A DNA stretch of 64,000 nucleotides from Verrucomicrobiota bacterium (GTDB lineage Bacteria > Verrucomicrobiota > Verrucomicrobiia > Limisphaerales > J093). Location: positions 2,390-66,389 of the forward strand of contig JAAYVR010000026.1 in assembly GCA_012517065.1 (NCBI GenBank), read 5' to 3'. Shown here piece by piece: positions 48,831 to 64,000 of the stretch. Under the pieces are notes generated by a model. The model ran no database searches. It was not told where the DNA came from and saw nothing but the letters and a program-made list of their open reading frames with translations. Positions within the stretch are counted from its first letter, which is position 1. Each line of letters starts with the position of its first letter. Both the position numbers and the translations under genes were made by a program.

Positions 48831-48917
48831 GGCTGAGCCCTCCAGCTTTGGCGGTTGCGAACCAGGCCTTGGTTTCCAGTGTTGCGGTGTACCGGAACAG
48901 ACGTTATTTCTGCAGCC

Positions 48918-49136
48918 ATGAAGTTGCCAGCCATCATCGAGCCGGATGATGATGGCGTTTTCGTTGCAGAGTGCCCCGCGCTGCCAGGCTGTGTCTCACA
49001 AGGAATAAAGCGCGAGGAGGCGATGGCCAACATGCGCGATACAATCCAGAGATACCTCGCCGGTCTCAAGAAACACGGTGAACCGATCCCGCTTGGCATT
49101 TTCATTGACCTCTCCCCCTGTCACCTGGCGTGCTGA
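48918..49136 (+). CDS. HicB-like (UPF0150) antitoxin-fold protein, orphan, antisense to the efflux operon
   Basis: MKLPAIIEPDDDGVFVAECPALPGCVSQGIKREEAMANMRDTIQRYLAGLKKHGEPIP matches the HicB N-domain pattern. Lies in the 271-nt gap between the MFP stop and the RND start; its 3' end overlaps the MFP stop region. Confidence 0.6.
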   Translation: MKLPAIIEPDDDGVFVAECPALPGCVSQGIKREEAMANMRDTIQRYLAGLKKHGEPIPLGIFIDLSPCHLAC

Positions 49137-50217: not shown

Positions 50218-51566
50218 GGCAGAATCTCCTTTTCCGCTATGGTGTTAATGCGCTCGGCGGAAATGACAAAATCGGCCCGGGCCGTTGCCAGTGCCGCGCG
50301 CGCGGCTTGTTCACGATAGCGCGCCCGCAACAGGTCCTCGATCGTGCTCGAGCCTGTGTCGTAGCGCACCTGCTCGATGCGCGCGGCTTCGGCGGCTGCA
50401 GTTACACGAGCCGCCGCGGCAGCCAGATTGGTTTGCGCGGCTTCGAGTTTCGCCACCGCATCCTGCCACGCCGCCAGGGTTTGCAATTGCGCCTGACGCA
50501 AGGCTTCCTCGGCGGCAGCCTGCCGCGCCCGAGCAGCGCTCACCCGCAGAAGGCGAGAACCACCCTCAAACAGCGGCAGAACCACCGACACGGTCGCGCC
50601 CCAGGTTTCCTCGTCGCGGTCGGTTCGCGTTCCGGTGTGCTCGAAGACGTTGGCACTGGCGATAACTCGGGGGAGCAGGTCGCTTCGGGCCACCTTCACC
50701 CCTCGTGCCGCCTGTTCGGCGGCCAGCTTGGCAGCGCGAATGGCGGAGTTGTCATCAACAGTCAATGGCAAGGCGCTGCCGCTTGTCGCTGCCATGGACG
50801 GTGCCGTCTGCGGATCCACTTCAAGCTCAATTGCCGGATCACGGCCAACAACGGACAACAACAGCGAAGCGACCTTGCGCCGGTCAGCACCCAGACTGGC
50901 GTGGCTGGCTCGCGCGGCTTCCAGTTCCTCGATCACCTTGAGCCGGTCCACCTCTGGCCGTTTGCCGATCGAAACCATCTGGTCAAGGTTTGTCCTGGTC
51001 TGGGTCAGCGCCGCGATTTGGCCGTCGAGCGCCAAAGCAGCTTGCTCGAGTGCCTGAAGCGAGGAGTAAAGCGAAACGACGTTGAAGCGGACCTGCCAAC
51101 GCGTGCCTTCGTGAAGTTCCGCCGACCTTTTGGCTTCGAGTTTGGCGATTTGAATCTGGTTGTGCAGCCGCCCGCCGAGATACAACGGGATTTCGTAGCT
51201 CAACCCGTAGTGCGCCTGGCTGCGATCCCACGGCGCGCCAAGGATACCGTTCGCCATCAACTCGCTCGACATGGGCCGAATGATCTGGTCATCGTTCAGG
51301 TAAGAATATGAACCGACGGCGTTGAGTGCGCCCCACCGCGAGCGATCAGCAGCCTTCGCTTCGCTCTCCGCAGCGCGACTCTGGTGGCCTCTGGCTTTGA
51401 GACTCGGATTCGCCTTGAGCGCTTCCTCGATCGCCTGTGCCAGTGTCAGATGCAGCGCCAACCCATTCCCTTGTGAAGAAGCTGCCTGCGCACAAACTTT
51501 GTCCGCCGCCCATGGTCCAAAGAAGACGCACAATCCCAGTGCCAATTCACAGAAACGCGCTTTCAT
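50214..51566 (-). CDS. TolC-family outer membrane efflux protein
   Basis: Two-repeat OEP architecture and signal peptide MKARFCELALGLCVFFGPWAA. Start moved to the internal ATG. Confidence 0.9.
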   Translation of the reverse strand: MKARFCELALGLCVFFGPWAADKVCAQAASSQGNGLALHLTLAQAIEEALKANPSLKARGHQSRAAESEAKAADRSRWGALNAVGSYSYLNDDQIIRPMSSELMANGILGAPWDRSQAHYGLSYEIPLYLGGRLHNQIQIAKLEAKRSAELHEGTRWQVRFNVVSLYSSLQALEQAALALDGQIAALTQTRTNLDQMVSIGKRPEVDRLKVIEELEAARASHASLGADRRKVASLLLSVVGRDPAIELEVDPQTAPSMAATSGSALPLTVDDNSAIRAAKLAAEQAARGVKVARSDLLPRVIASANVFEHTGTRTDRDEETWGATVSVVLPLFEGGSRLLRVSAARARQAAAEEALRQAQLQTLAAWQDAVAKLEAAQTNLAAAAARVTAAAEAARIEQVRYDTGSSTIEDLLRARYREQAARAALATARADFVISAERINTIAEKEILP

Positions 51567-51714
51567 TTCTTTGATCTCCCGCCATGGCTTTTTCACATTG
51601 CATAACAATTATCCCATTATTCAAAGCCGTCGGCAACGGTAAGCATATTTAGCAAAAATGCAAAACAGCTAATAATCAGGAGCCGTTACTCACAGAATAG
51701 TTACAGTTTTCTTA

Positions 51715-52040
51715 TCCGTAGCCCTCATGTTTCCCAGCCCGGCGAAGCCGGAACCAGAGTCGCCTGACGAGCAACGCCCCCCGGCTCTTGCACACCCCCT
51801 GACCTTCAGTCACGCCGGTTCGGGGAATATGCCCTGCGACTCCATCCCAAGGAAAAGCGCGCTGATACCAATGGTTTCTCACGCGCTGCCGCGGATGCAG
51901 TGGGCGTTGGTTGGCGCGAAGCGCTTGCAGTGCGGCAGCTTGCTGCCGCTTTGTTGTTATGCACAAACAACGTGCCTGGAACCAGATCGGCATGGTGTAG
52001 AAAATAACGTGTCTGTCCCCATATCGGCACCATATCGGCA
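51715..52040 (+). repeat. composite repeat, modules A-B-C'-C
   Basis: A 51715-51865, B to 51962, variant C 51963-51990, C 52000-52027 plus the short duplication caccatatcggca. Confidence 0.9.
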
Positions 52041-52055
52041 CTCCATTGGGTCCCC

Positions 52056-53399
52056 TCAAAACGAATAAACGAACTGGGCGAAGGCCCAATCGGCGCCGGT
52101 GTGACTGCCGGGAGTGGACCGCACGAAGCTGCCGGGGAAAAAGTGAGCATAGCCGAATAATAACTCCAGTTCCTTGTTCACCTGCCAGCGCGCAATGACG
52201 TCCAACTCGTGGCCGAGGTCTTGTCCGGCCTGGCCCGAGGGATCACGGCGCTCCGGTTTGCCGTTGACCCAGTACCAGGCGTCGCGCGCTTGGGCCAAAC
52301 GGAAATAGTGATAGTCCACGCTGACCTTGATGGATTTCGCCGGTTGAACGCTGAAGTTCAGCACGTAGTCCTCGAGATTCTTCCAGCTCACCACGTTCAT
52401 CCAGCCGTAGGGAATGTCCATCGCGCCAAAGATGCCGTCAAACGTGCCGGCCACGCCATCATGTGGGTCGCGGTCGCCGCTGGCGTAGTTGAACTCGACA
52501 CCGACCCGCGGCTTCCAGTCGGTCTTGAACGTGTAGCCTGCGCGCGCGATGACGCCAAAAGCCCGGATGTCGTCGCGGCCATACTCACCCAGTTGACCGG
52601 CGGCGAACAGGCCGTAATCCCAGCCCTTGCCGGCGGGCCGCTCGGTGAACAGGCCGAAGGTGTGGCGAATTTCGTCGCCCACGCCACTCTCGCCCTTGGC
52701 GCTGCCGGACCAGTCGTGTTTGACCACGTAGAAGGCGTCCAGCGTGACCGGTAGTTGTTTGACGCGGGCATAGACCGCACCCACGTGATAGGGCCAGTGA
52801 TCGAAGTTCCAGTCCTTGGGCTCGCTCAACACGCGTTGAGCGTAAAAGGCGTCCACCTTCACGGCGTCTGTGTCGTAATAAAGTTTGGCGCTGTCCCACC
52901 AGTAGTTGCCCACGTTGCCCCACTCGGCCGGGGCGAACACGCGGCGGTCGCCGTAGAGCAGGATCTGCCGGCCCAGCTTCACGCCGACCGGCGATGCACC
53001 GATGTGCTGCCACTCGAGGTAGGCCTGCCGCAGATCGAACCGGTCGAAGTACGAACTGCTACGCCCGAAGTCGGACAACGCGAGGTCGCTTAGCCAGTAG
53101 CGAGCATCTTGGAACTCAACGAACGCGTGCGCCTGATCCGTGAAGCAGTAATCGGCGCTCAAGCGGGTGCGGAGCAAGAGCACGTCATCATCCGCGCCCG
53201 TGCCGTAATGCAGGATGTTGAAATTGTCGAGATATTCGTAGCGACCGCGGACGTTGAGGCCGAGGTCCAGCCTGCCCGGACCGGCCTTGATGTCTTTGAG
53301 CGGCGAATACCAGGGCGAAGTGGCTTGGGGAGCAAGCGTGTCTGCCGCCTGCAACGAGATTGCTGCGCACACGAGCCACGGCAAGAAGTGCGCCGGCAC
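52056..53399 (-). CDS. outer-membrane beta-barrel porin (alginate-export/AlgE-like family)
   Basis: Alternating beta-strand pattern with aromatic girdles; blocks LGLNVRGRYEYLDNF and LLLRTRLSADY; terminal F. A GTG at 53399 gives the signal peptide VPAHFLPWLVCAAISLQA-AD. Start uncertain (the track ORF runs to 53609). Confidence 0.7.
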   Translation of the reverse strand: MPAHFLPWLVCAAISLQAADTLAPQATSPWYSPLKDIKAGPGRLDLGLNVRGRYEYLDNFNILHYGTGADDDVLLLRTRLSADYCFTDQAHAFVEFQDARYWLSDLALSDFGRSSSYFDRFDLRQAYLEWQHIGASPVGVKLGRQILLYGDRRVFAPAEWGNVGNYWWDSAKLYYDTDAVKVDAFYAQRVLSEPKDWNFDHWPYHVGAVYARVKQLPVTLDAFYVVKHDWSGSAKGESGVGDEIRHTFGLFTERPAGKGWDYGLFAAGQLGEYGRDDIRAFGVIARAGYTFKTDWKPRVGVEFNYASGDRDPHDGVAGTFDGIFGAMDIPYGWMNVVSWKNLEDYVLNFSVQPAKSIKVSVDYHYFRLAQARDAWYWVNGKPERRDPSGQAGQDLGHELDVIARWQVNKELELLFGYAHFFPGSFVRSTPGSHTGADWAFAQFVYSF

Positions 53400-53640
53400 C
53401 CTGCCGAGGCGAAACGGAGCGAAAACTGGAGGACAACGACAAAGGCGCTTTCGGCTGGAAAAGACGAAACGACAGGCCTCGGGCCGGAACGATGTCGCTC
53501 CCACCCGTGGGGCATTGTGGCCGCAGTCCAAGAGCATGCTGCCCGCCGCGTTGACTCGCCGGGCGCTTCCGCGACCAAACCGTCGCTTCGTTCCGGGGAT
53601 TGGTGTCATGCGCAGGCTGGCTGGACAATTCGCATGGCGG

Positions 53641-54264
53641 CTATTTCCTTTCGTAGCCGGAGCACGGAATGCACACCGGCTGGCCGTCTTTCATCCGTGC
53701 ATAGCGTTCAAAAACATATTCGCCGCACACGCTGCACTTGGTCTTGTTGAACGATCCCTTGATCGGCGTGTAGGTGAAGTCTGGTTTGTCCTCCACCTTG
53801 AATATCGCTTCGTCCGGCTGGGCGTAGGTCCACTGGATAACTTCCTGCCGCACCGGCAGCGGAATTTGCGACGGCTCGACGCCCTTTTTGCGATGAGCGA
53901 AAAACTCGAACTTGCCCAACGCGTCCACAAAGTCGGGACGGATGGAAACGCGCACCGCGCCCTTCTTCGGATGATAGAAAGTCGCCGCGAGCTTGCCGTA
54001 AAACGTCTTGGCGATGGTCAGCTTGCCGTAGGTCGCGCCGGTGGCAACCTGGATGCCGTCCATCAGGCAGGTCTGCGGATGCGCCTCGCCGAGCTCGGGA
54101 AAGACGTAAAAGCCGTGGTCTGGCTCGTGTTCAACACCCAGGCGCGCCATCGCGAGTTTCGCCATACGATAGCCCAGCGGCATGAATGGACATTGGTGGC
54201 CATGGAACTCGAACGCCCAGTCGGGCGGGATGTGATTGGTCCTTGCGGTTTGACTCGTACTCAT
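53641..54264 (-). CDS. FmdE/FwdE-family protein with C-terminal zinc ribbon
   Basis: FHGHQCPFMPLGYRM core and CSVCGEYV...CIPCSG ribbon. ATG at 54264 is preceded by AAAGGAGAG. Confidence 0.85.
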   Translation of the reverse strand: MSTSQTARTNHIPPDWAFEFHGHQCPFMPLGYRMAKLAMARLGVEHEPDHGFYVFPELGEAHPQTCLMDGIQVATGATYGKLTIAKTFYGKLAATFYHPKKGAVRVSIRPDFVDALGKFEFFAHRKKGVEPSQIPLPVRQEVIQWTYAQPDEAIFKVEDKPDFTYTPIKGSFNKTKCSVCGEYVFERYARMKDGQPVCIPCSGYERK

Positions 54265-54316
54265 AGTTCTGCTCTCCTTTCTTGTATTGTTGTTGCTTCG
54301 TGTCAGTTGACACGCC

Positions 54317-55081
54317 TTACACAATCCCCGCCAGCTTCAATGCGATTTGTGTGGCAAAAAACCACATGATGCCGGCGAAGGCTATCTTCACAAAGCCGGG
54401 GCTGGCCTTTACCGTGACGTGCGAGCCGACCGCAGAGCCCAAGACGCAGGCCACGGTCGTCACCGCCAAAAACTGCCAGTCCACATGGCCCAAAGCGAAG
54501 TGGCCGATCGTGCCCACGAAAGAGCTGACAGTTACGATCAGCGAGTTGGCGCCCGCTGCCATCTGTGCACCGTATTTCATGTAGAGCACGAGAAACGGGA
54601 AAATAATCAGCCCGCCGCCCACGCCGATGAGACTTGAAAGCACGCCCACGCCGAAGGCGAAAACTGTTACCAGCGCGATCATCTTTCCGGTGAGCTTTTT
54701 GACCTGCTGGCCGGGCTTCTCTTTGGCCGAAAAAACCATGAGCAGACCCACAACGTAAAGAAACACGGAGAAGATGCCGAGCAGGAGATTTTTGGGCGCC
54801 ATGCTGGAGAGCACGGCTCCCAAAAATGAACCCGCGACGGTCCCAGGCAAAAACACGAGGCAAAACCGGTAGTCCACCAGCTTGTTCCGCTGAAAGACAA
54901 TCGTGGCCACCAGCGAAGTCACCAGGTTTAAGAAGAGAGCGGTCGAGATGGCCGGACCGACCGCCATGCCGAGCATCACCAGCACCGGTGTGTAGAGCGA
55001 ACCGCCGCCCTTGCCGAACATCGAGAAGACCCCCGAGATCAGCAACACCACGAAGAAAGCGATGAGCAGAGTCGTGTTCAT
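54317..55081 (-). CDS. TauE/SafE-family anion exporter (DUF81)
   Basis: About 254 aa, 7-8 TM. N-terminus MNTTLLIAFFVVLLISGVFSMFGKGGGSLYTPVLV. Confidence 0.9.
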   Translation of the reverse strand: MNTTLLIAFFVVLLISGVFSMFGKGGGSLYTPVLVMLGMAVGPAISTALFLNLVTSLVATIVFQRNKLVDYRFCLVFLPGTVAGSFLGAVLSSMAPKNLLLGIFSVFLYVVGLLMVFSAKEKPGQQVKKLTGKMIALVTVFAFGVGVLSSLIGVGGGLIIFPFLVLYMKYGAQMAAGANSLIVTVSSFVGTIGHFALGHVDWQFLAVTTVACVLGSAVGSHVTVKASPGFVKIAFAGIMWFFATQIALKLAGIV

Positions 55082-55130
55082 CCTGTTCCTTGACGGGCGG
55101 GCGCTGATTCCGCGCCGGGCTGTTGCGTTC

Positions 55131-57590
55131 TCATGTCTCCAGCGGCTGCCCCTTACCAATTCCCGGCTCTGCCGGGACGGTTACAGCCAGCCGCAACAAC
55201 AACGTGACGATGGACACGAGCGCCACTAGTGTCAGGCCAAGGTCAAACCCCGTGTAAGCCAACCGGGTCACCGTGGCGAGCCAGTCGAACTTCACCAGCA
55301 TCGAAGCCCCGCACACGCCGGTCCAGAGGAGGAGCACCCACAGTGCGCCCGCGAGGGGCGCCGGTGTGGCTGCCACCGTTCCCTTGTTGCGGCGTTGCAA
55401 GGCCAGAACTAAGCCCAGCAACAGGATGCCGATGCCGATCCAGAAATGTGCCGCATCCAGCGTGAACCGCCGGGCGGTCATGTATTCCGCCAAGCCATGC
55501 GTGCGCACGACCAGCAATCCGCCCACGACCATGCCCACAAAGGCAAGCCAGGATAGCGCGACGGCCGTTTGCGGTGTCACGACGCCATGCCGCAGCGCCA
55601 CGTTTCGCAAGCCAAGGATGACCAGCAAGCCCGCCAGCAACGCCAGCAGCCCGTAGAGGATCGGCTTAAGCGTCGCCTCCCGAAAAGCGCCCAGCCGCAC
55701 GGAGTCGGTCGAATAGCCGAGGATCGTGTAATTCGGCCCCCATACAGGTCGGGCGTCGCCAGGCGAGAACGCGGCCAGCAGCACTGGCTGATCGAAAAAG
55801 CGCGAGTTAAACGAATGGCAGTCCACGCAACCACCCGAGCCGAGAGCGGCCCGTGCGGGGGCGATGTCGTGGTTGTATTTGTGGACGTTGGCGTAGGGCG
55901 AGGCTTCCCACTCGGTCTTGGCGAGCGCGCGGAATTCGGTGCCCGAACTATAAACGCGCTCATTTGAGACCCACACCACGCGTTTGCCTTCGAGGTCGTA
56001 GCCGAGCGATTTGAGATGGCGTGTGGTTGCAGCGATCAGTGCGTCAATTTCCTCGGGCCGGTTGATCTCCGGACGGCCGTCGCCGTTGTCGTCCTTGATG
56101 CGCGTCAGTTCGGCGTATTGGTTGGTGTCGGCCAGATGGGCCTTCCACATCGCCACGATATCGGGCGGCCGCGGTTGCATGAGGCCGGGTTTACCGGGCG
56201 TTTCGATACCGGGCCAGGCGGAATGGATGCGGTTGACGGGATAAATCTTGCCCTTGTAGCGGGCGAGCACGGGCCGGAAGGTCTCGGTGGGTTTGTCGTC
56301 GTAACCCATGACCTTGAGCAGGCCGTAGTGATTGCGATACGCGCCGTCCACGCCATAGAAAGTCCAGAGCTGCTTGCCGCCGGGATCAATCCACGCGTCG
56401 GTGTTAAACACATCACTGGCCTGAACCTGGATGGGCATGACCTGTTTTTCGGGTGTGTGACAGGTCTGGCAGGCGATCTTTTCCAAATGCAACGGCGGCA
56501 GCCATAGATGCGTGGCAACGGGCGCGCCAAAGCGGCCTGTTGTGTGACAACTGGTGCAATCCCGCACGGTGTTGTCGAGGTCATCACGCACGCGACCGCC
56601 GGGATCATCTCCCTTGCCGAATTGATGCACCTCTTGGCCGTGGATGCGCAGGTCATCGGCATTGCTGCCGGCGGGGTGGCAATCCACGCAGCGCAGCCCC
56701 GCGCGGAAATGAACGTCTGTGCGAGCGCGATAATCCGCGCCGCGTTTCTTCCAGCCCGGCTGCGCGTGGCAGGCCAAGCAGGTTTCATTACGCGGCTGGG
56801 CCACCACGCGGACCTTCACGTTGCCTGCGGCGTCGAAATGGCCGAGGTCGTAAGTGACCTGCGGCACTTGATTGCTGGCGACCGCGCCGGTCACCTGGCC
56901 AAAACCAGCCCCTACAGTTGCGGCCCAACGAAAGTTCAGCTTGGCGAGCTGGTCGTTGCGTTTCTTCATGTCGTATTCGGGCAGGTGGCAAAGCAAGCAA
57001 TCGGCCTCGACCACGCCGGTTTCGGTCCAGCGGGCCTTGTAGTAATCGCCGTCGAAACGGTTGTCGCCGCCCGGTGTCAGTCCATTGGCCGGGTCGCGCA
57101 TCCAGATGTCGTAGCGTTTGCCGTTCCGGTCAAACTCGAGCGGCCCGCCGCCCGGATGACAATTGCCGCAACCCGCCGTGATGAACGTGGCCGAGGTCAT
57201 GTCAATGGTGACCGCTGACGCATTTGTCTTGGGCGCGAGGTAACGGTAAAGCGGTGCGGGCGAACACCACGTGCCGCCGTAGTTGCCGGGTGACGTTACC
57301 CACTGATAACGCGCCGCCATGTCGGCGGGCACAGCTTCGCCCTTGCCCTGCATGAAATGGTAGCCCTGCGTGACCTTGTCGTAGTCGTGGCAACCGGCCG
57401 CGCCGCAGGTTTGGCGCGGCGAGTAAGGCGTGGTGGCGTTGATACCTTTAACCGGGTTGATGACGTTGCCCTGCTCGTCCTTGAGTTGATAGGGCGGACA
57501 AACCCGCACGGGCGGTTTGGGGGTGTCACCAGCCCCAAGAACAGCGCCAGCGGAGGCGAAAGTGACGAGCAAGCCCAGGCCGGATAGCAT
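55131..57590 (-). CDS. membrane-anchored octahaem c-type cytochrome (large periplasmic domain + 5 C-terminal TM helices)
   Basis: Signal peptide MLSGLGLLVTFASAGAVLG. Seven CxxCH (CGNCH, CLLCH, CLACH, CVDCH, CTSCH, CQTCH, CVDCH) plus one CGAAGCH (CX4CH). Five hydrophobic helices in the last ~190 aa. The track ORF extends to 57896 through repeat DNA. Confidence 0.85.
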   Translation of the reverse strand: MLSGLGLLVTFASAGAVLGAGDTPKPPVRVCPPYQLKDEQGNVINPVKGINATTPYSPRQTCGAAGCHDYDKVTQGYHFMQGKGEAVPADMAARYQWVTSPGNYGGTWCSPAPLYRYLAPKTNASAVTIDMTSATFITAGCGNCHPGGGPLEFDRNGKRYDIWMRDPANGLTPGGDNRFDGDYYKARWTETGVVEADCLLCHLPEYDMKKRNDQLAKLNFRWAATVGAGFGQVTGAVASNQVPQVTYDLGHFDAAGNVKVRVVAQPRNETCLACHAQPGWKKRGADYRARTDVHFRAGLRCVDCHPAGSNADDLRIHGQEVHQFGKGDDPGGRVRDDLDNTVRDCTSCHTTGRFGAPVATHLWLPPLHLEKIACQTCHTPEKQVMPIQVQASDVFNTDAWIDPGGKQLWTFYGVDGAYRNHYGLLKVMGYDDKPTETFRPVLARYKGKIYPVNRIHSAWPGIETPGKPGLMQPRPPDIVAMWKAHLADTNQYAELTRIKDDNGDGRPEINRPEEIDALIAATTRHLKSLGYDLEGKRVVWVSNERVYSSGTEFRALAKTEWEASPYANVHKYNHDIAPARAALGSGGCVDCHSFNSRFFDQPVLLAAFSPGDARPVWGPNYTILGYSTDSVRLGAFREATLKPILYGLLALLAGLLVILGLRNVALRHGVVTPQTAVALSWLAFVGMVVGGLLVVRTHGLAEYMTARRFTLDAAHFWIGIGILLLGLVLALQRRNKGTVAATPAPLAGALWVLLLWTGVCGASMLVKFDWLATVTRLAYTGFDLGLTLVALVSIVTLLLRLAVTVPAEPGIGKGQPLET

Positions 57591-57609
57591 CCGGCACCCA
57601 GCTTGTAGC

Positions 57610-57826
57610 GCAGACTTCCAGTCTGCCGTATCGCGGATTTCCAATCCGCAAAAGCTGCAAACTCTCCGAAGCGCCTCGAGTGACCACGCCCTGCCGACTA
57701 GAAGTCGGCGATACAGCAGGTTGGAAACCTTCGCTACAGTAGCGCGGGCTGGCAGCCTGCTGTGTCGCGCATTGGCAACAGCCGAGATGTTTCCGTTCTT
57801 GAGCGGTTCGCCGACCGCCCGTCGGC
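57610..57826. repeat. cluster of short 6-bp-stem / 5-nt-loop hairpins (family I)
   Basis: gcagacTTCCAgtctgc (57610-57626), gcggatTTCCAatccgc (57633-57649), gccgacTAGAAgtcggc (57693-57709) and gccgacCGCCCgtcggc (57810-57826). Confidence 0.8.
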
Positions 57827-57874
57827 CATGCGGCAGATTGTCAAACTGCGCTATGACTTCTTCAGAGTGCTCTT

Positions 57875-58180
57875 TCATGGCTTTTGTCCTTTCCATGCTG
57901 TGGGGGTTAAAGTCCTGGATGAAAAGCCGCCGCCCAGCGATTTGACCAGAGCCACAGCCGCAGCAAACCGCTGTCCGCGCAGCCTCGCCACGGCGCGGTT
58001 CTGCGCCTGGTCGCGGCCCACAATCTGGATGTCAAACGGCGCGGGCAGTCCGAAGTTGATGGTCTGGCTGACGATGTCCGTCGGCATCCGCAGCAGCACG
58101 AACGGCGTGAGCAGCAACAACACCAGCGCGGCCACCACGAAGGTGTAAGGCCGGCGAAGAGCTAGGCGGACGATCCACAT
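57875..58180 (-). pseudogene. relic of an RND efflux permease (N-terminal 35 aa fused to a mid-protein segment, then out of frame)
   Basis: MWIVRLALRRPYTFVVAALVLLLLTPFVLLRMPTDI is a typical RND N-terminus/TM1. It is followed directly by VSQTINFGLPAPFDIQIVGRDQAQNRAVA, a block normally about 500 residues further on. Total length is 101 codons. Confidence 0.6.
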
Positions 58181-58186
58181 GGCGCG

Positions 58187-58519
58187 TCACGTTTGGGTAA
58201 TGGCGATGTGAACGTCCTTGGGCAGAGCCAGTCCTGCGGCGACCTGCATGGCCTTGAACAGGCCCACCGGCACGGCGCATCCGGCACAACAGCCCGGCAA
58301 TGACTCACGCACGTTTTCCAACAGGCGACTCCCCCTGGCCGGATTAATTTCCTGAAAAGCATCCAGCGGACCGAGCGCCTGAAGGCGCGCGTTCAACTGC
58401 TGGATTTTGTCGCAGTCGGTTTCCAGCTCGAACGTCACGTATTGTGCATCGTCGCTGCGTGCCCGCACGGTCGTGCGGAATCCGCAGATTCCGGCTTGGA
58501 TTTCAGCCATGGCATTCAT
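58187..58519 (-). CDS. small Cys-rich protein of unknown function
   Basis: 110 aa. GICGF near the N-terminus, DCDKI, PGCCAGCAVPVGLFKAMQVAAGLALPKDV. Resembles an uncharacterised DUF family seen next to thiol-redox genes (from memory, unverified). Confidence 0.6.
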   Translation of the reverse strand: MNAMAEIQAGICGFRTTVRARSDDAQYVTFELETDCDKIQQLNARLQALGPLDAFQEINPARGSRLLENVRESLPGCCAGCAVPVGLFKAMQVAAGLALPKDVHIAITQT

Positions 58520-58669
58520 TGGTTGTCAAAACCGGTATTTGCTACTCGCAGTCTGTCTCCGACTCGGCGTTTGCTCCTCCGAGGCAGACCAGCGGAACTT
58601 GCGGGCGGCTGAGTCGTCTGCGTCCAGCCAATGTGGCTGGCCGCCCGGCAGCCCGGACAACCGCGCTGC

Positions 58670-59347
58670 TCAGCTCTTGCCCTCGAGGCGAAGGGCCACT
58701 TCGCCCACATGCTTGCCAAGCTGGGCGGCGGTTTTCAGGCCGAGCTCGTCGTCCGCGATGCTGTCCTTGGTCGAAAGCAGCGTCGCACCCTGAAATGCAG
58801 GCGCGTGGCCGCCGACAGGAATCATGCCGAAGCAGAGCAGGATGGCCTGCACCTGCTCGATGGCCATTTCCTGACCGCCGTTGCGGAACGCCCCTACCGT
58901 CACCACGCCGAACGGTTTGCCGGCCAGAACCATCTGCGGCTCACGCAACGGGGCGAGTCGTTCGAGGAAACATTTGGCCAGGCCGCTCAGGCTGCGGAAA
59001 TAGCAGGGCGTGCCGATGATCAGGCCGCCCAGGGCCGGGTCGCGGAACTTGGGCAGGACGGTCTTCATGTCGTCGTCGGGCGGCTGGGGCGACCATGGCG
59101 CGATGTTGAGCCCGCCCAGGTCGATCAGTTCAGTTTGAATCCGCGTGTCCACACTCTTGGCAGCGTCCAGTGCGGCTTGAACGGCTTTGGCTGTGGTCAT
59201 GCCCTTGCGCGGGCTGCACGAGACGCCGAGGATTCTGACGATACCCTGGCCGGGTGCTTCCGCCGCCCGGGCCGAGGTTGACGTTGCGGCCAACGCGGCA
59301 ACGCTGGCGCTGGCCAGGAAGTTCCGACGGTTGATTTGGTCTTTCAT
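58670..59347 (-). CDS. Tat-exported flavodoxin-fold NAD(P)H-dependent FMN reductase-like protein
   Basis: Twin-arginine signal MKDQINRRNFLASASVAALAATSTSARA, then ILGVSCSPRKGMTTAKAV (FMN_red-type P-loop). ATG at 59347 is preceded by AAAGGA. Confidence 0.8.
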   Translation of the reverse strand: MKDQINRRNFLASASVAALAATSTSARAAEAPGQGIVRILGVSCSPRKGMTTAKAVQAALDAAKSVDTRIQTELIDLGGLNIAPWSPQPPDDDMKTVLPKFRDPALGGLIIGTPCYFRSLSGLAKCFLERLAPLREPQMVLAGKPFGVVTVGAFRNGGQEMAIEQVQAILLCFGMIPVGGHAPAFQGATLLSTKDSIADDELGLKTAAQLGKHVGEVALRLEGKS

Positions 59348-59420
59348 GGGATGTCCTTTCGGTTTGAGGTTCAACTTTCACGCATCACGTTTCACGCATC
59401 AAGTTTCACTCTTCACGCCT
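59348..59420 (-). repeat. 7-nt periodic GTGAA-rich intergenic leader
   Basis: The minus strand reads GCGTGAA GAGTGAA ACTTGAT GCGTGAA ACGTGAT GCGTGAA AGTTGAA CCTCAAA CCGAAAG GACATCC before the ATG. Confidence 0.8.
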
Positions 59421-60119
59421 TCATGGCGCGCTGTAGATCAGCCACACGCCGCCGAGCATCACGAGGATGCCGCAGACGATTTTCAGCGCAGTGAGGCCCT
59501 TGGATTGCTCGTTCCATTTGAGCCAGCGCTCGACCAGTTCGGTGGATGTGCCCGCGGCCACTATCACACTGCAATGCCCCACGCCGTAGGCCAGTAGCAG
59601 CACGGCGCCGTAAAGGAAATTGGTCGCAGCCAGCTTGAACGTCACCGCCAACATCGGCGCCATGTACGCAAATGTGCACGGCCCAAGCGCGATGCCAAAG
59701 ATCAGTCCCAACATAAACGCCGCCAGCAGGCCCTTGCGCTTCATGCCCACTTGCCCCGGTCCGGACCACGGCATGGGAATCACGCCAACCAGATACAGGC
59801 CTACGGCAAAAAAGATCAGCGCCACGAAGTAGTTTCCGTAGCGGCCCACGTCGCCCATCAAACGCCCCGCCGCGGCCGTGATGATGCCGATGAATGCGAT
59901 GGTCGTCAGGATGCCCACCGCAAAGAGAGCCGATGTCCAGAACGCGCGCTTCGCCGTCACCGGGCCCTGCTCGCTGATGAAACCGACGATGAGCGGGATG
60001 CTGGCGAGATGGCAAGGGCTGAGGATGATGCTCAACACCCCCCAGACCGCCGCCGCGCTCAGCGCCAGCAACGGCGCCCCTTCCACCGCACGACTGAGGT
60101 TGGTGAAGAGTTGTTCCAT
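59421..60119 (-). CDS. CcdA/DsbD-type transmembrane thiol:disulfide electron transporter (possibly the ArsG-like branch)
   Basis: 232 aa, 6 TM. Membrane-embedded Cys motifs LSPCHLASIPL and LGPCTFAYMAP. Confidence 0.85.
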   Translation of the reverse strand: MEQLFTNLSRAVEGAPLLALSAAAVWGVLSIILSPCHLASIPLIVGFISEQGPVTAKRAFWTSALFAVGILTTIAFIGIITAAAGRLMGDVGRYGNYFVALIFFAVGLYLVGVIPMPWSGPGQVGMKRKGLLAAFMLGLIFGIALGPCTFAYMAPMLAVTFKLAATNFLYGAVLLLAYGVGHCSVIVAAGTSTELVERWLKWNEQSKGLTALKIVCGILVMLGGVWLIYSAP

Positions 60120-60122
60120 AAA

Positions 60123-60701
60123 TCATTGCTGGTCCAGACGCTGCGGAAAACCCGTTTGACCGGTGCTTATGGGCTGCTCTTGGCCGTCAATGAGGTTGCG
60201 CATTTCCGTTTCCACGTAGTTGCTTAACTTGGCGGGTTCATGCACCAGTTGCCATGTGTTAGCCAGCAGCTTCCACTCTTGCGGCTGGCCTTCCCGCAGC
60301 AGAACCAGCACCAGCGACGGGCACGGCAGGTTGTAGTCGGCCAGATAATGCTGGTTCTCCGGCAGATCATAATTGACCGATTCCCAAATCACACGGTTTG
60401 CCGCCACCTCGGCACCGAACTGCTGCTCCACCACCGCTTGGGCCAGCGCTTCGATCTGGAGGCACGTCTCGCAGCGGACCGTGCCGTGAAAGTAGTAGGC
60501 CATCAGGGTGCAAATCGCGTCATTGGTGGCCTCTGGATCGGCGTGGCGGGCAACGGTCTCCGCAGGCGGGGCAGGCACAGGAGAACAGCATGAGCCGTTG
60601 TCTTGCGTGCGACTCGCACTGCCCCGGCGCTTCATCGAAGATACTGCCCCCACCAGCACTAGTGCCCCGAGCAAGAAGACGATCTGCGTGCGGGGTTTCA
60701 T
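60123..60701 (-). CDS. membrane-anchored thioredoxin-fold protein with CxxC (resembles proteins RefSeq labels ArsF family; unverified)
   Basis: N-terminal TM (IVFLLGALVLVGAV). YYFHGTVRCETCLQIE motif followed by a thioredoxin-like pattern. Start moved to the ATG at 60701. Confidence 0.65.
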   Translation of the reverse strand: MKPRTQIVFLLGALVLVGAVSSMKRRGSASRTQDNGSCCSPVPAPPAETVARHADPEATNDAICTLMAYYFHGTVRCETCLQIEALAQAVVEQQFGAEVAANRVIWESVNYDLPENQHYLADYNLPCPSLVLVLLREGQPQEWKLLANTWQLVHEPAKLSNYVETEMRNLIDGQEQPISTGQTGFPQRLDQQ

Positions 60702-60865
60702 TTGCCTATCCGAATCTCGCCCACCAACGGCGCCGCTTCCCTCACGAACCGGGCGCATTTCTCGCGCAGTCTGCGTTCACCGGAGAACCGCGGCCCTCTT
60801 GGCGAACGGTCCGCCGCTCCGTTAGGCAGCAGATCAGGTGCGGACTTCATGGAATTTCGTTCCGG

Positions 60866-62194
60866 TCACTTGCACTCGCCGAGCTTGCATGCCTTCGCGA
60901 TTTGCTCAGGCGTCAGTTTCATTTTGTCCGCCAGCGCCTGCGCAATCGTGATTTGGCGCCCCGTCATCGCGGGACGGGCGTCCAGCCACTTCCGCAGGTT
61001 GTCCTGGTTGACGAAGAATCCCTGCTTGAAGCAGCCGGCCGAAACCCACTGGCCTTCGGCGTTTTTCGTTTGGCCAAACCAGGCAATGGCCGTCGGGGGG
61101 GCGATAGAGGCAATCTGGCCATCGAGCGTCTTCACCCGTATTGGTTCACCGGTCAGACCGTCATTTGCTTCGACCTCGATATCCTGCTTGAACCGTGCGG
61201 CCACACCGAGCGAGCAATGGGTACAACAGCCGTAGCCTCGTGTGGTCCCGAACTTCACCACGCAGGCGTCTTCGGGATACACCGCGCGGTCGCAGAAAGC
61301 GCACCGCGTGGCCAGTTCTTTGGACCGAAGCACGTCCCAGGCGAGCAGGTTGCCGCCGCTCGACCGCTGTTCATTCGTCGCGGCTTCCTTCTCACCGAAT
61401 GCCTTTATCGTTGGCCGCCCTTTGGCATCCATGCCGTAGATATAGACCGCCGCGGAGGCGGGCACGAGATTACCGCTGACCCAATCCGTTACGCTTACTT
61501 TGGAATCCTCGGTCTTCGGGTCTGCGCCCACAAGGCTCGAGAAGTAAATGAAGTAACAATGGGGGCTGCAGAAAATGCGTTGTTCGCTCTGCCCCTTAAC
61601 CACGGTCCTTGTCTTGGGGTCAACGTCCCCATCGCACATGAAACAGACCTTGTCGCGCGGGCGGGTATCAGGTTTGACAGGTTCCTCGCGAACGACGCCG
61701 GCGGACTGCTTGGCCAGTAAATCCACGCCCAGTTCCTTCCACTTGGCCAGGATGTCTTCCTTGCCAAAAAAGCCCACGTGGCGAAACCGTTCCTTGCCCT
61801 CTGCGTCGTAGAAAATCTGTGTGGGAATCATTTGAATGCCGTAGGCCCGGCCCGCAGCAGGATTCTTCCACACGTCAATGAACTCGACTTCCAGTCGTCC
61901 GGCATACTCGCGCTTCAGCTCTTCCAGGATCGGCGCCATCATCTTGCACGGGATGCACTTGTCCGCACCAAGATCGATCAGCTTCGGCAACTTCGCGGCA
62001 ACTGTCTGGGTGGAAGCCGGCGCTGCTGAAGCGGCCGTGGCGCTGGGGGCAGCCGCCGACTGTGCCGCCGCCGGGGGAGAATCGCCTGCACCGGCTGCAG
62101 ATTTCTTGTGGTTTTGTTTCAGCGCTACCGCGGCGATGACCGCCACCGCCAGCGCGGCGATGATGAGGAGTTTGGCGGATGTTTTCATGCTCAC
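60866..62194 (-). CDS. membrane-anchored thioredoxin fused to two TRASH-type Cys4 modules with NosL-like segments
   Basis: TM anchor; Trx domain with CIPC. CFMC-x21-CSPHC and CAFC-x21-CCTHC both fit the TRASH pattern C-x2-C-x19-22-C-x3-C. C-terminal tail CKLGEC. Confidence 0.8.
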   Translation of the reverse strand: MSMKTSAKLLIIAALAVAVIAAVALKQNHKKSAAGAGDSPPAAAQSAAAPSATAASAAPASTQTVAAKLPKLIDLGADKCIPCKMMAPILEELKREYAGRLEVEFIDVWKNPAAGRAYGIQMIPTQIFYDAEGKERFRHVGFFGKEDILAKWKELGVDLLAKQSAGVVREEPVKPDTRPRDKVCFMCDGDVDPKTRTVVKGQSEQRIFCSPHCYFIYFSSLVGADPKTEDSKVSVTDWVSGNLVPASAAVYIYGMDAKGRPTIKAFGEKEAATNEQRSSGGNLLAWDVLRSKELATRCAFCDRAVYPEDACVVKFGTTRGYGCCTHCSLGVAARFKQDIEVEANDGLTGEPIRVKTLDGQIASIAPPTAIAWFGQTKNAEGQWVSAGCFKQGFFVNQDNLRKWLDARPAMTGRQITIAQALADKMKLTPEQIAKACKLGECK

Positions 62195-62249
62195 TTGGTA
62201 TTCCCGGTTTTCTGAAACATTGGCTGTTGGTTGCAGCTTTCCATGGGTC

Positions 62250-62753
62250 TCATTCTGAACCGGCCCGGCAGCAGCAGCCTCCAGCAGGGGACGGTGTCAT
62301 GCCACCTTTTGCTTGGTGGACGAGCCGCTGAACATTGCCCAAACAGCAAGACCCTTGTGGGTTGGTACGCTCGCATGCATCCAGCCCTTGAGAGCACTTG
62401 GACTTGATGTCTTGCAGGATGCTGGAAGAGCCTGTTTCGCGCACCTCGCTCTGAATCGCTCGCACTGTGTGCCCGAAGCAGTAGCAAACCAACCGATCCG
62501 GGTTGGTGCTCTTTTGGAAAACCTCGACGCGCACTTCATTCAAACGCACGAGGTCGCTCGACCCCGGCTGGTAGTAAACGACCTCGCACTCCGGGCTTTG
62601 GCAGAACAAAAAGCCGGGCTTTGAAGGCAGACGGCTGCTTACTTCTGGCACGAGCATGGCTGACACTGTTGTTGGAGAAACAGGCCTGCCTCGCTGGCCA
62701 CAGCTTGGGCACCTGTCGTCAATGGCCCTTGAACAGCACGATGTGAGGTTCAC
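62250..62753 (-). CDS. CopZ-N-terminal-domain-like metallochaperone (Zn-ribbon + BFD-like [2Fe-2S] motif) with poly-Cys tail
   Basis: CCSRAIDDRCPSCG, FCQSPECEVVYY, VCYCFGHT...CERTNPQGSCC and the tail GGCCCRAG. Confidence 0.65.
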   Translation of the reverse strand: MNLTSCCSRAIDDRCPSCGQRGRPVSPTTVSAMLVPEVSSRLPSKPGFLFCQSPECEVVYYQPGSSDLVRLNEVRVEVFQKSTNPDRLVCYCFGHTVRAIQSEVRETGSSSILQDIKSKCSQGLDACERTNPQGSCCLGNVQRLVHQAKGGMTPSPAGGCCCRAGSE

Positions 62754-63526
62754 GGCTTGATCTTCTGGTAAATGGCCGGCAGGCGGGTGCGATACAGCTC
62801 ACTCACCTGCGCCTCCATCTCGGCCAATGGTTTCACCGGGATCAGGTCCATCACCTCTGACGGGCTCAGACCCGACTCGAGCAACGTGCGCGTGCCGCCG
62901 CAAACCATGCGTTTCATTGCCGGCACAATCTCGGCGTCCGTCAAACCAAAACCCGCAGCCACCTCGCGCAAGGTCTGCAATTGAAACCACAGGTACGTCG
63001 GCCCCATCCCAGACAAGATTGCGTATGCCTCGAGCTTTTCCTCGGCCACTTCCGGACACTCACCCAATGGCCCGAGCAATGATTTGACTTCAGCACGATC
63101 ACCGGCGCTCAACGCAGAACCTAACACCGTGGGATTGTAACCCTGGCCGATAATCGATGGCGCGTTTGGTATCACACGGGCGATCCGTGCAAATCCCCCA
63201 AGGATTTCTGTCAGCTTCGAGACCGTAAACTTTGGCGCCAACGACACAAGAATTGCATCGGGTTTGAGATTGGCTTTCACGCCGCCGCAGACCTCGACCA
63301 TCACGGGCGGGTGAACTGCCAGGAATACAATGTCCTGGGCTGCCACCGCCGAGCTCGAGGCCCCAACCTCGATGTTCGGGAACCTGTCCTTCAACTTCGC
63401 AAGCGCTTCTTGATTACAGTCGCAAACCGTCACTCTGGCTGGCATTGCGTTTGCGCGTTTCCAGCCCTCGAGAAAAATGCGGGTCACCCGCCCGCCGCCA
63501 ATGAACCCGATACTTTTGTGGTGCAT
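62750..63526 (-). CDS. pyrroline-5-carboxylate reductase-family NAD(P)H oxidoreductase
   Basis: 258 aa. IGFIGGGRVTRIF dinucleotide fold and a ProC-like C-terminal dimerisation domain. Overlaps the next gene by 4 nt. Confidence 0.8.
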   Translation of the reverse strand: MHHKSIGFIGGGRVTRIFLEGWKRANAMPARVTVCDCNQEALAKLKDRFPNIEVGASSSAVAAQDIVFLAVHPPVMVEVCGGVKANLKPDAILVSLAPKFTVSKLTEILGGFARIARVIPNAPSIIGQGYNPTVLGSALSAGDRAEVKSLLGPLGECPEVAEEKLEAYAILSGMGPTYLWFQLQTLREVAAGFGLTDAEIVPAMKRMVCGGTRTLLESGLSPSEVMDLIPVKPLAEMEAQVSELYRTRLPAIYQKIKP

Positions 63527-63619
63527 TTGTCCCTCCAGAGTCTGATTGTTTACTCTTTACCTCACACGTCTCACGTCTCCCGAATCACGTATTACGCATC
63601 ACTTTTCACGTCTCGCGTC
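63527..63619 (-). repeat. 7-nt periodic ACGTGA-rich intergenic leader
   Basis: The minus strand reads GACGCGA GACGTGA AAAGTGA TGCGTAA TACGTGA TTCGGGA GACGTGA GACGTGT GAGGTAA AGAGTAA, then ...GGAGGGACAA ATG. Confidence 0.8.
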
Positions 63620-63880
63620 TCAGCTACTCTTCTCCCCTTCAGCCGCCTGACTCAACATTGTCTTGAGTTCGGCTACGCTCGGCACTTTGCCGACCACTTT
63701 TATTGTCCCGTTGATTGCGAGCGCCGGCGTCATCATTACGCCGAGGGCCATGATCTGCTGGAGATCCGTGACCTTGTTGAGTTCATATTGCAGACCGAGC
63801 TCTTTTGCAGCCTGTTCAGCAAACTGCGCCAGCGTCCTGCACCGCGCGCATCCAGGTCCAATCACAAGCAAACTAATCAT
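63620..63880 (-). CDS. small thioredoxin-fold protein (redox-active disulfide protein, TM0996/MTH895-like)
   Basis: 86 aa. MISLLVIGPGCARC CxxC at the N-terminus and TPALAINGTIKVVGKVPS. Confidence 0.85.
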   Translation of the reverse strand: MISLLVIGPGCARCRTLAQFAEQAAKELGLQYELNKVTDLQQIMALGVMMTPALAINGTIKVVGKVPSVAELKTMLSQAAEGEKSS

Positions 63881-63952
63881 ACGCTTTCTCCTTTCACGCT
63901 CTCCATTTCATTGTTCACGTTTTACTTATCACGTTTCACGTTTCACGTTTCA
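63881..63952 (-). repeat. heptanucleotide tandem repeat (TGAAACG)n forming the whole leader of the thioredoxin-like gene
   Basis: The minus strand, from the stop codon of the upstream gene, reads TGAAACG TGAAACG TGAAACG TGATAAG TAAAACG TGAACAA TGAAATG GAGAGCG TGAAAGG AGAAAGC GT-ATG. Confidence 0.9.
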
Positions 63953-64000
63953 CTTCACCGCACCATATACCATGCCCGTGATCGTCGCCATGACGACGGT
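63950..64000 (-). CDS. 3' end of a membrane protein gene (permease-like; partial)
   Basis: The open frame reads ...TVVMATITGMVYGAVK-TGA. Hydrophobic C-terminus. Small thioredoxin-fold genes of this type usually sit beside a DUF318/ArsP-like permease (from memory). Confidence 0.4.
   Translation of the reverse strand, partial: TVVMATITGMVYGAVK

Follow-up and report, generated by a model that had tools for sequence, protein, structure and literature searches.

The window analysed here, a stretch of 64,000 nucleotides (nt) of contig JAAYVR010000026.1 from a Verrucomicrobiota bacterium (assembly GCA_012517065.1), ends in nine minus-strand open reading frames (ORFs; 58187–64000), which the initial annotation had located correctly and had read as a thiol-redox island without a recognisable catalytic or resistance core. 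We find that the locus is very probably an ars operon under ArsR-type control. At its centre is a 442-amino-acid (aa) fusion of a thioredoxin (Trx) domain with NosL-like and MerB-fold domains, which forms a conserved core with a small thioredoxin (Trx_3) and a CcdA-like membrane protein, Trx_3 being a usual rather than a constant member. This core is unnamed, is covered by no NCBIfam model and lacks experimental work. The module is real, non-random and widely conserved; it is an ars operon theme with an uncharacterised MerB-fold centre and is neither categorically new nor characterised. Its most economical reading, which we hold with reasonable confidence and which retains the membrane-to-periplasm reducing route with many Cys sites of the initial annotation, is a thiol relay across the cell envelope.

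An ArsR-headed operon with a conserved core

The first of the nine ORFs in transcription order is truncated at the window end, where the C-terminal 16 codons and the stop codon of an ArsP_1-type permease are found (63950–64000; all window features described in this section and the next are on the minus strand). An exact search with the final 51 nt of the window identified two metagenome contigs, L085 and L086, that extend the locus upstream. These contigs are near-identical to the window: they encode the same Trx_3 and CopZ-N-like proteins and a ProC-like protein with a single residue changed, and over the DNA that was aligned the differences amount to a few substitutions plus a 6-nt indel within an array of intergenic repeats. 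On L085, the permease gene is complete (447 aa; PF03773, 254 bits) and lies directly upstream of the Trx_3 gene. By this PF03773 match and by the vicinal Cys pair that one of its membrane helices contains (VCSCS), the product qualifies as an ArsP-type permease, whose substrate may be an organoarsenical. Directly upstream of the permease gene, L085 759–1064 encodes an ArsR/SmtB repressor (HTH_5, 56 bits) with the motif ERCVCEL, which we take to be the classical alpha-3 As(III) site of R773-type ArsR. The arsR gene is preceded by a promoter-like TTGACA-17-TAACTT element with a perfect GCCAATTGGC palindrome.

The regulator that the initial annotation had proposed to seek past 64 kb is thus found on L085/L086 and is the tenth gene of an operon of which the window holds nine, not ten as had been counted; the partial permease-like gene recorded at the window end proves to be of the ArsP_1 family. 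With arsR and the full permease gene on L085, the island becomes an ArsR-headed ten-gene operon rather than an orphan redox cluster, in the order arsR, ArsP_1 permease, Trx_3, ProC-like, CopZ-N-like, fusion, ArsF-family, CcdA-like, Tat-FMN_red and DUF6951. Neither the window nor the 2.4 kb upstream on L085 encodes Acr3/ArsB, ArsC or ArsM. The initial annotation was therefore right that homologues of ArsR, Acr3, ArsM and ArsC are missing from the 64-kb window, but its ‘no Mer’ holds only as the absence of a mer operon, since the fusion contains a Pfam MerB domain.

The fusion is encoded in at least 569 genomes (scan of one genome per species), mostly of Verrucomicrobiota, Planctomycetota (Pirellulales, Phycisphaerae, Sedimentisphaerales) and Hydrogenedentota. 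Synteny was assessed in 80 loci listed out of these genomes, all of them metagenome-assembled, with flanks of up to 10 kb that end at contig ends; 42 loci are Verrucomicrobia-type and 38 are not, and the phyla represented are Verrucomicrobiota, Planctomycetota, Hydrogenedentota and others. The neighbourhoods were searched for the window proteins and for recurrent neighbour families. Clustering of neighbours on all six-frame ORFs over-merged, and greedy non-overlapping ORFs were used instead; because gene calling is crude, the counts given below were taken from phmmer searches of six-frame translations, for which the score thresholds were set ad hoc.

The CcdA-like gene accompanies the fusion in 75/80 loci, always on the same strand and mostly immediately downstream, and the Trx_3 gene does so in 68/80 (same strand in 67). 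Shared strand and order of these three genes in 68–75 of the 80 loci, across several phyla, is an arrangement far beyond chance. ArsR is present in 63/80 loci, with CVC[DE] in 53 of the 63, and the ArsP_1 permease in 53/80, with VCSC[TS] in 51 of 54 copies. Acr3 occurs in 31/80 loci (302 bits for a representative in NCBIfam; cut-off 283), ArsM in 26/80 (315 bits; cut-off 263) and an ArsC of the low-molecular-weight protein tyrosine phosphatase type in 26/80 (149 bits for a representative, under the equivalog cut-off of 174); ArsA was likewise encountered among the neighbours. Of the 39 loci whose flanks reach 6 kb or more on each side, 24 encode Acr3, ArsM or ArsC, and the number rises to 38 if ArsR is counted too. 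A resistance core is recognisable after all, in the form of ArsR control, the ArsP_1 permease, the MerB-fold domain and, in 43/80 loci, at least one of Acr3, ArsM and ArsC. The neighbour counts define Trx_3, the fusion and the CcdA-like protein as the conserved unit, embedded in ars operons.

Both partners of the fusion are readily assigned to families. Trx_3 (63620–63880; 86 aa, motif CARC) is a Thioredoxin_3 protein of the MTH895/ArsE family (PF13192, 86.7 bits; TIGR00412, 96.5 bits with a cut-off of 62), as the initial annotation had it, and is cytoplasmic, judging by the absence of a signal peptide. The CcdA-like protein (59421–60119; 232 aa; PF02683 [DsbD_TM], 37.5 bits with a gathering score of 27.1) has the two conserved membrane Cys of a CcdA/DsbD-beta-type thiol-disulfide conduit, in the motifs SPCHL and GPCT, and both motifs are present in 76 of 76 copies from the sampled loci.

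The other window genes outside this core are lineage-specific additions. The ProC-like protein (62750–63526; 258 aa) has the NAD(P)H-binding fold that the initial annotation had proposed (PF03807, F420_oxidored), but its 118.4 bits against TIGR00112 are under the cut-off of 196.75, so that it is a paralogue of pyrroline-5-carboxylate reductase and not ProC itself. It is encoded in 22/80 loci, 21 of the 42 Verrucomicrobia-type and 1 of the 38 others, and on account of this restriction we rejected the idea that it is an obligatory, NAD(P)H-dependent electron source. The CopZ_Nterm_CC protein (62250–62753; 167 aa; PF18423 [zf_CopZ]; NF047645, 108.4 bits with a cut-off of 100) combines a Zn site, a BFD-like 2Fe-2S region and a CCC motif close to the C-terminus, and recurs in 1/80 loci. 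The DUF6951 protein (58187–58519; 110 aa; PF22263, 92.6 bits), with five Cys including CCxxC, is the product of the final operon gene in this genome and is found in 3/80 loci. Co-conservation of the island, which the initial annotation had made the test of its proposal, thus extends to Trx_3, the fusion and the CcdA-like protein, but not to these two rare components.

The two exported accessory proteins recur more often. The twin-arginine translocation (Tat)-exported, flavodoxin-like Tat-FMN_red protein (58670–59374; 234 aa; PF03358, 77 bits; TAT_signal) is encoded in 36/80 loci and has a twin-arginine motif in 35 of 36 copies; no ArsH model matched it at E≤0.01, and it has only general FMN_red and weak WrbA matches. 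The ArsF-family CxxC protein (60123–60758; motif RCETC; NF040494, 100.4 bits with a cut-off of 60) has an N-terminal membrane helix or signal, and its true start is likely Met20, at ~60701. Its family is present in 18/80 loci, and a representative planctomycete-type copy has a Cys-containing, lipoprotein-like N-terminus. Family searches with hidden Markov models accordingly bear out the initial annotation for Trx_3, the CopZ-N-like protein, the anchored CxxC protein, the conduit, the Tat flavodoxin-fold protein and the small Cys-rich protein.

Several genes from outside the window recur beside the core. Genes for MacB, with a membrane fusion protein (MFP) and an ATP-binding cassette (ABC) protein, occur in 19/80 loci, arranged MFP-MacB-ABC downstream of the module, and a SurA-Trx protein with a signal peptide is encoded in 12/80, in non-Verrucomicrobia-type loci only. 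Cys-rich DGC-domain proteins (PF08859) form two separate clusters (26/80 and 9/80 loci) and are frequent extra members, e.g. in L002 (3074–5471), L005, L014, L025, L028, L051 and L054; in some Verrucomicrobia loci they are found with a CLNVGC-type disulfide oxidoreductase (which has no MerA tail), AhpD/CMD-like proteins and OsmC.

Two arrays of AACGTGA-like heptamers flank the Trx_3 gene, one of 5.7 copies in the permease/Trx_3 spacer (63914–63953) and one of 8.3 copies in the Trx_3/ProC-like spacer (63565–63622). Seven of the 28 ACGTGA sites in the whole window cluster in these arrays, and it is the second that bears the indel relative to L085 (2500–2560). Similar arrays adjoin the module in two further Verrucomicrobia loci, L020 and L023. 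An Rfam search of 57–64 kb, arrays included, gave no match.

The Trx-NosL-MerB fusion protein

The fusion (60866–62194) consists of a membrane helix (residues 6–26), a disordered Ala/Pro/Ser linker, a Trx domain, two Cys-knuckle domains and a C-terminal CKLGEC tail; in Pfam, these domains score as thioredoxin, NosL and MerB. The Trx and MerB-like domains are probably periplasmic. The Trx domain (residues 64–150; 61745–62005; PF00085, 47 bits) has the motif C80-I-P-C83, and its best match in the PDB is Bacteroides fragilis TrxP (3hxs; E 7.8e-15), a periplasmic CcdA-dependent thioredoxin. Repeat 1 (residues 180–289; 61328–61657; C184-x2-C187-x21-C209-x3-C213) matches NosL (PF05573) at 26 bits, barely above the gathering score of 24, and no nos genes are nearby. 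Repeat 2 (residues 298–421; 60932–61303), with the knuckle C298/C301/C323/C327 and, in addition, C324 and C388, matches MerB (PF03243) over residues 310–421 at 72.4 bits, compared with a gathering score of 27. The two align as an internal repeat (28% identity, E 3e-4), and both knuckles fit the TRASH pattern C-x19-22-C-x3-C (C187-x21-C209-x3-C213 and C301-x21-C323-x3-C327). The initial annotation, which had called the protein a Trx-TRASH-TRASH fusion, was therefore correct about the Trx domain and the repeated motifs, but Pfam assigns the repeats to NosL and MerB, with no YHS, Arc_trans_TRASH or similar family matching at E≤0.01.

MerB is defined by Cys96, Asp99 and Cys159, of which Asp99 is held essential for protonolysis (PMC8261052). 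Aligned with MerB2 (5C17; phmmer E 8e-10), the fusion has C324 at C102, C327 at S105 and C388 at C165; C324 thus corresponds to Cys96 and C388 to Cys159 of MerB, and C327 occupies the Asp99 position (Ser105 in MerB2). Each of the three is an invariant Cys across a 67-sequence alignment. The same alignment underlies our structural model: AlphaFold with 25 close relatives gave a pLDDT of 51, and this model was discarded; after the addition of 45 planctomycete-type sequences, the resulting 67-sequence alignment gave 84.6, and the top PDB hit of the model in Foldseek is MerB2 (5C17; E 3.6e-8). The NCBIfam MerB models score far under their cut-offs (NF033555, 27.1 vs 200; NF009710, 24 vs 193). The domain thus has the MerB fold but lacks a defining catalytic feature of MerB, and the Cys at the Asp99 position would create a thiolate-only site. 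All 15 Cys of the fusion are invariant in the 25-sequence alignment; in the 67-sequence alignment (48–77% identity), 13 are invariant, whereas conservation drops for C213, though to no less than 90%, and is lost for C311.

The best 120 database relatives of the fusion are full-length, 71–82% identical and mostly from Verrucomicrobiota, and all have Thioredoxin and MerB Pfam matches; a planctomycete homologue used as query retrieved a second large set, 48–57% identical to the window protein. The C-terminal module has 109 representatives at 50% clustering (E≤1e-3), and this small number marks the family as compact. An exact-sequence look-up of the window fusion matched no contig, and our literature search found no description of a MerB-like protein or Trx fusion in ars operons. 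Distant homologues of the double NosL/MerB domain stand alone and have lipoprotein or Sec signals. Two of them (L088 8001–12915; L090 1755–6983), with a lipoprotein or signal peptide and a CCPHC motif in each repeat, belong to a conserved cassette that also encodes a 106–116-aa ORF, MacB/FtsX, an ABC ATPase and another two proteins that have no annotation. One example comes from a genome where Spo0A is close by. The cassette seems to be a distinct system, itself uncharacterised. Seven relatives of the fusion (P0249, P0266, P0268, P0273, P0282, P0301 and P0329) are named ‘organomercurial lyase’ by NCBI despite Cys at the Asp99 position.

A predicted thiol relay and its alternatives

The function that we favour, and to which we would give an even chance, is an arsenic-induced trans-envelope thiol relay that serves a periplasmic binding and hand-off protein for a thiophilic metalloid. 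Reducing power from Trx_3 or the general thioredoxin pool of the cytoplasm would pass to the two-cysteine CcdA-like conduit and from there to the membrane-anchored Trx domain and, where present, to exported ArsF-family or SurA-Trx proteins. The Trx domain would keep the thiols of the fused NosL/MerB-fold domains and of the flexible CxxxxC tail reduced in the periplasm. There, these thiols would capture a thiophilic metalloid in its trivalent state, with As(III) and trivalent organoarsenicals expelled by the ArsP-type permease or Acr3 as the likeliest ligands, and the bound metalloid would be either buffered or handed to envelope exporters (MacAB-type or resistance-nodulation-division [RND], which are frequent neighbours), much as NosL serves NosDFY. 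The ProC-like, CopZ-N-like and DUF6951 proteins have no step in this scheme. What suggests the relay is the CcdA signature of the conduit, the match of the Trx domain to TrxP and the export signals on accessory partners and stand-alone homologues. The invariant Cys of the fusion, one of them at the MerB Asp99 position, speak for metal(loid) binding. The relay, the placement of stand-alone homologues beside MacB/FtsX-ABC genes and the MFP-MacB-ABC genes downstream of the module together favour a periplasmic binding/hand-off protein. That the fusion is a chaperone rather than an enzyme is a tentative proposal, which we would sooner question than assert.

Several observations weigh against the relay or its link to arsenic. 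Acr3, ArsC and ArsM are absent within 64 kb of this genome, and the arsenic link therefore rests here on ArsR, the family of the permease and synteny elsewhere; ArsR/SmtB repressors with an alpha-3 CVC site can also respond to other soft metals, and the permease also resembles SO_0444 Cu/Zn exporters and SaoE, both below cut-offs. Basic residues are present on both flanks of the N-terminal helix of the fusion, so that its topology is putative. Its four-Cys knuckles may be structural zinc sites only, and ~75% identity across Verrucomicrobiota, together with the retained catalytic Cys pair of MerB, would also fit an enzyme. A pure chaperone model leaves the role of the Tat flavoprotein unexplained, and every functional statement about the module is ultimately a prediction from sequence.

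Three characterised or proposed systems resemble parts of the module. Like CcdA/DsbD-dependent periplasmic reductases (B. fragilis TrxP with CcdA; the copper-stress system ScsB/ScsC), it pairs a two-Cys conduit with an exported thioredoxin-fold acceptor in what would be a dedicated response to stress. What sets the module apart is the covalent fusion of its acceptor to metal-binding domains and its place within an ars operon. With NosL/NosDFY, a Cu(I) chaperone lipoprotein and its ABC-type complex, it shares the NosL/MerB fold family, exported or lipoprotein relatives and MacB-type ABC neighbours, but it has no nos cluster, its sites are thiolate-rich and its context is ars. The SAO system of Clostridioides difficile (SaoL, SaoE, SaoT; Haft and Gwadz preprint, 10.1101/2022.07.06.499078) also has a MerB-like protein, an ArsP-superfamily exporter, a small MJ0307/MTH895-like thioredoxin and CC-motif proteins. 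SaoL, however, keeps Asp and is cytosolic, and the SAO system, which lacks CcdA, includes an ABC importer and selenocysteines. The SAO models place the module outside that system, scoring far below their cut-offs (SaoL, 22 vs 140; SaoE, 103 vs 325 on a permease homologue).

Among the alternatives, the one that survives best, although we consider it unlikely, is that the MerB-fold domain acts in the periplasm as a thiol-dependent, O2-independent lyase on trivalent organoarsenicals, breaking their carbon-arsenic (or other carbon-metalloid) bonds, with Cys327 as proton donor in place of Asp99 and the fused Trx domain and CcdA-like conduit resetting the site. In the broader and equally improbable version of this idea, the Asp99-to-Cys MerB fold and its CcdA-fed Trx domain would be a new O2-independent enzyme acting on carbon-metalloid bonds or in organoarsenical redox chemistry, for example by removing methyl or aryl groups from trivalent organoarsenicals where oxygen is absent, and the entire ArsE/ArsF/‘ArsG’ group would be a trans-envelope thiol relay instead of a nitroreductase with an efflux pump. 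The MerB fold with its invariant Cys96 and Cys159 equivalents argues for a lyase, as do the very high conservation, typical of enzymes, and the co-occurrence of the module with ArsM and an ArsP-type permease, characterised ArsP being an organoarsenical exporter. Many carriers, moreover, belong to lineages labelled Sedimentisphaerales, Anaerohalosphaeraceae and Hydrogenedentota, which are believed to be largely anaerobic, and the O2-dependent ArsI and ArsH could not act there. We know of no O2-independent C-As lyase, which is why such a role would be important if true. As-C bonds are, however, far less prone to protonolysis than Hg-C bonds; C327 lies within a four-Cys knuckle of which the NosL-like repeat has a second copy, as would befit a binding or structural site; and stand-alone homologues pair with ABC exporters, as the chaperone NosL does. 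The fusion shares the fold and the Cys96 and Cys159 equivalents of MerB and MerB2 (PDB 3F0P, 5C17), but differs from them in its added CxxC...CxxxC knuckle, the NosL-like repeat in front, the attached Trx domain and membrane anchor, the probable periplasmic location and the ars rather than mer context. Asp99, held essential for MerB protonolysis (PMC8261052), is absent.

Still less likely is an ArsEFG-type system, in which roxarsone- or nitarsone-type compounds would undergo nitro-group reduction by Trx_3 and ArsF before the CcdA-like protein exports the amino product. Trx_3 and the CxxC protein score above the cut-offs for the ArsE and ArsF families, respectively, the CcdA-like protein is homologous to a RefSeq ‘ArsG family transporter’, and nitro-reduction with efflux is reportedly the function that Chen, Zhang and Rosen described for ArsEFG in 2019. 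A comparison came from a tblastn search with the ArsF-family protein, which led to a Prevotella nigrescens plasmid (NZ_CP072340; L087) with the order winged helix-turn-helix regulator, ArsF family, ‘ArsG’, Trx_3, ArsP_1 permease, ArsC and ACR3; this Bacteroidota ars operon has the same relay but not the fusion. Its ‘aromatic aminobenezylarsenical efflux permease ArsG family transporter’ (L087 6324–7031; 235 aa) matches DsbD_2 at 82 bits and DsbD_TM at 27.5 bits and has the pair of membrane Cys characteristic of thiol-disulfide conduits; its fold suggests electron transfer rather than solute efflux. The CcdA-like protein is 26% identical to it (E 5e-9), with both Cys motifs aligned, and matches no NCBIfam ArsG model even at E≤5; the two share a superfamily only, and the CcdA-like protein is not of the ArsG family. 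Of the ArsF/ArsG resemblance noted in the initial annotation, the ArsF half is upheld above the NCBIfam cut-off, and the ArsG half holds at the level of the superfamily.

ArsEFG-type ars modules (Shewanella putrefaciens 200; P. nigrescens) and the operons of the Planctomycetes-Verrucomicrobia-Chlamydiae (PVC) lineages have in common an ArsR-type regulator, Trx_3/ArsE, an exported ArsF CxxC protein, a ~230-aa DsbD-superfamily protein and ArsP_1. The PVC module, however, adds the 442-aa fusion as its near-invariant centre; ArsF is optional, in the 18 loci noted above, and the fusion and the CcdA-like protein are near-universal. Its membrane protein is of the DsbD_TM/CcdA type, with a two-Cys signature that denotes an electron conduit and not a solute pump. 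Synthetic nitro-aromatic arsenicals cannot account for the spread of the module in environmental PVC lineages, and nitro-reduction with efflux is not obviously transferable to it. We therefore regard the PVC operons as carrying a version of this ars-linked relay whose constant partner in the periplasm is the fusion and not ArsF.

Copper handling, by a NosL-like periplasmic Cu(I) chaperone, a CopZ-N-like cytoplasmic partner and an SO_0444-like Cu/Zn exporter, is more doubtful again. The NosL match, CopZ_Nterm_CC and a permease similarity to SO_0444 of 113 bits are in its favour. Wahba is said to have reported in 2016 that Asp99 variants of MerB bind copper. Copper binding by MerB variants at this position also figures in the preprint of Haft and Gwadz (10.1101/2022.07.06.499078). 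The SO_0444 score, however, is far below the 300-bit cut-off, the neighbours are Acr3, ArsM, ArsC and ArsA rather than Cop or Cus genes, no HMA-motif protein was found in the 80 loci, and CopZ-N is all but absent from them (1/80).

The two remaining alternatives are very improbable. Some public annotations would have the fusion act in mercury detoxification, as a true organomercurial lyase or otherwise. This reading agrees with the Pfam MerB match above the gathering score and with the several NCBI records that give its relatives that name, but the replacement of Asp99 and the scores of 24–27 bits against NCBIfam cut-offs of 193–200 contradict it, as do the ArsR-type regulator, the ars neighbours, the lack of recurrent MerA, MerT, MerP or MerR in the 80 loci (where the sole disulfide oxidoreductase cluster is without the C-terminal Cys pair of MerA) and a curated MerB census in which no MerB is listed in Planctomycetes or Verrucomicrobia (PMC8261052). 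A unit for general redox chemistry of the periplasm or for cytochrome maturation, working with the operon directly downstream (octahaem cytochrome, TauE, FmdE, porin), is suggested by this proximity, by CcdA and an anchored Trx as the classic cytochrome c maturation pair, and by TauE and/or FmdE-like genes adjoining the fusion in 4/80 loci (TauE in 4, FmdE in 3, as a pair in 3), but is opposed by the dominant ArsR and ars context, by a decayed efflux-gene remnant between the two blocks and by the absence of the 921-aa cytochrome and the AlgE-like porin from all neighbourhoods (0/80 loci each).

Flanking DNA and wider significance

The downstream block (52056–57896, minus strand) comprises four genes, for the 921-aa cytochrome, a TauE/SafE permease, a protein that has both an FmdE domain and a C4 zinc ribbon, and a porin of the alginate-export type. 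In the cytochrome, there are seven motifs of the form CxxCH and one of the form CxxxxCH, and its C-terminal part has five membrane helices. TauE and FmdE-like genes are both immediately upstream of the fusion in L049, L053 and L063, and TauE alone in L077 (Planctomycetota/Hydrogenedentota). Given that the cytochrome recurs in none of the sampled loci, we rejected its operon as part of the system, a tie that the initial annotation had drawn, and consider it unrelated to the ars-type module.

Between the DUF6951 and cytochrome genes lies a 101-codon ORF (57875–58180, minus strand) with no Pfam match. By eye, it is composed of an RND-pump N-terminus (MWIVRLALRRPYTFVVAAL...), an internal RND-like piece and the C-terminus of an outer-membrane factor (OMF; VALVKSLGGGF), which suggests a collapsed efflux operon, a putative deletion scar between the ars-type operon and the cytochrome block; intact OMF-MFP-RND genes are found at 45630–51608. 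G+C content is 0.60–0.625 over 52001–62000, i.e. the cytochrome block and most of the ars-type operon, and 0.55–0.60 in the remaining window. The rise in G+C and the efflux-gene remnant may mark a rearranged or acquired segment.

Two consequences concern annotation. The label ‘ArsG efflux permease’ appears to have been placed on a DsbD-type electron conduit. Since relatives of the fusion are recorded as ‘organomercurial lyase’, merB counts based on Pfam or KEGG in sediment metagenomes could be inflated unless Asp99 is checked. For the biology of these bacteria, the strong conservation of three core genes, which occur in at least 569 genomes at species level and inside what are otherwise among the best-studied resistance operons, points to a periplasmic, thiol-dependent arsenic-handling step in diderm bacteria that is missing from current schemes, and it raises a possibility that, if true, would amount to an O2-independent route for organoarsenicals.

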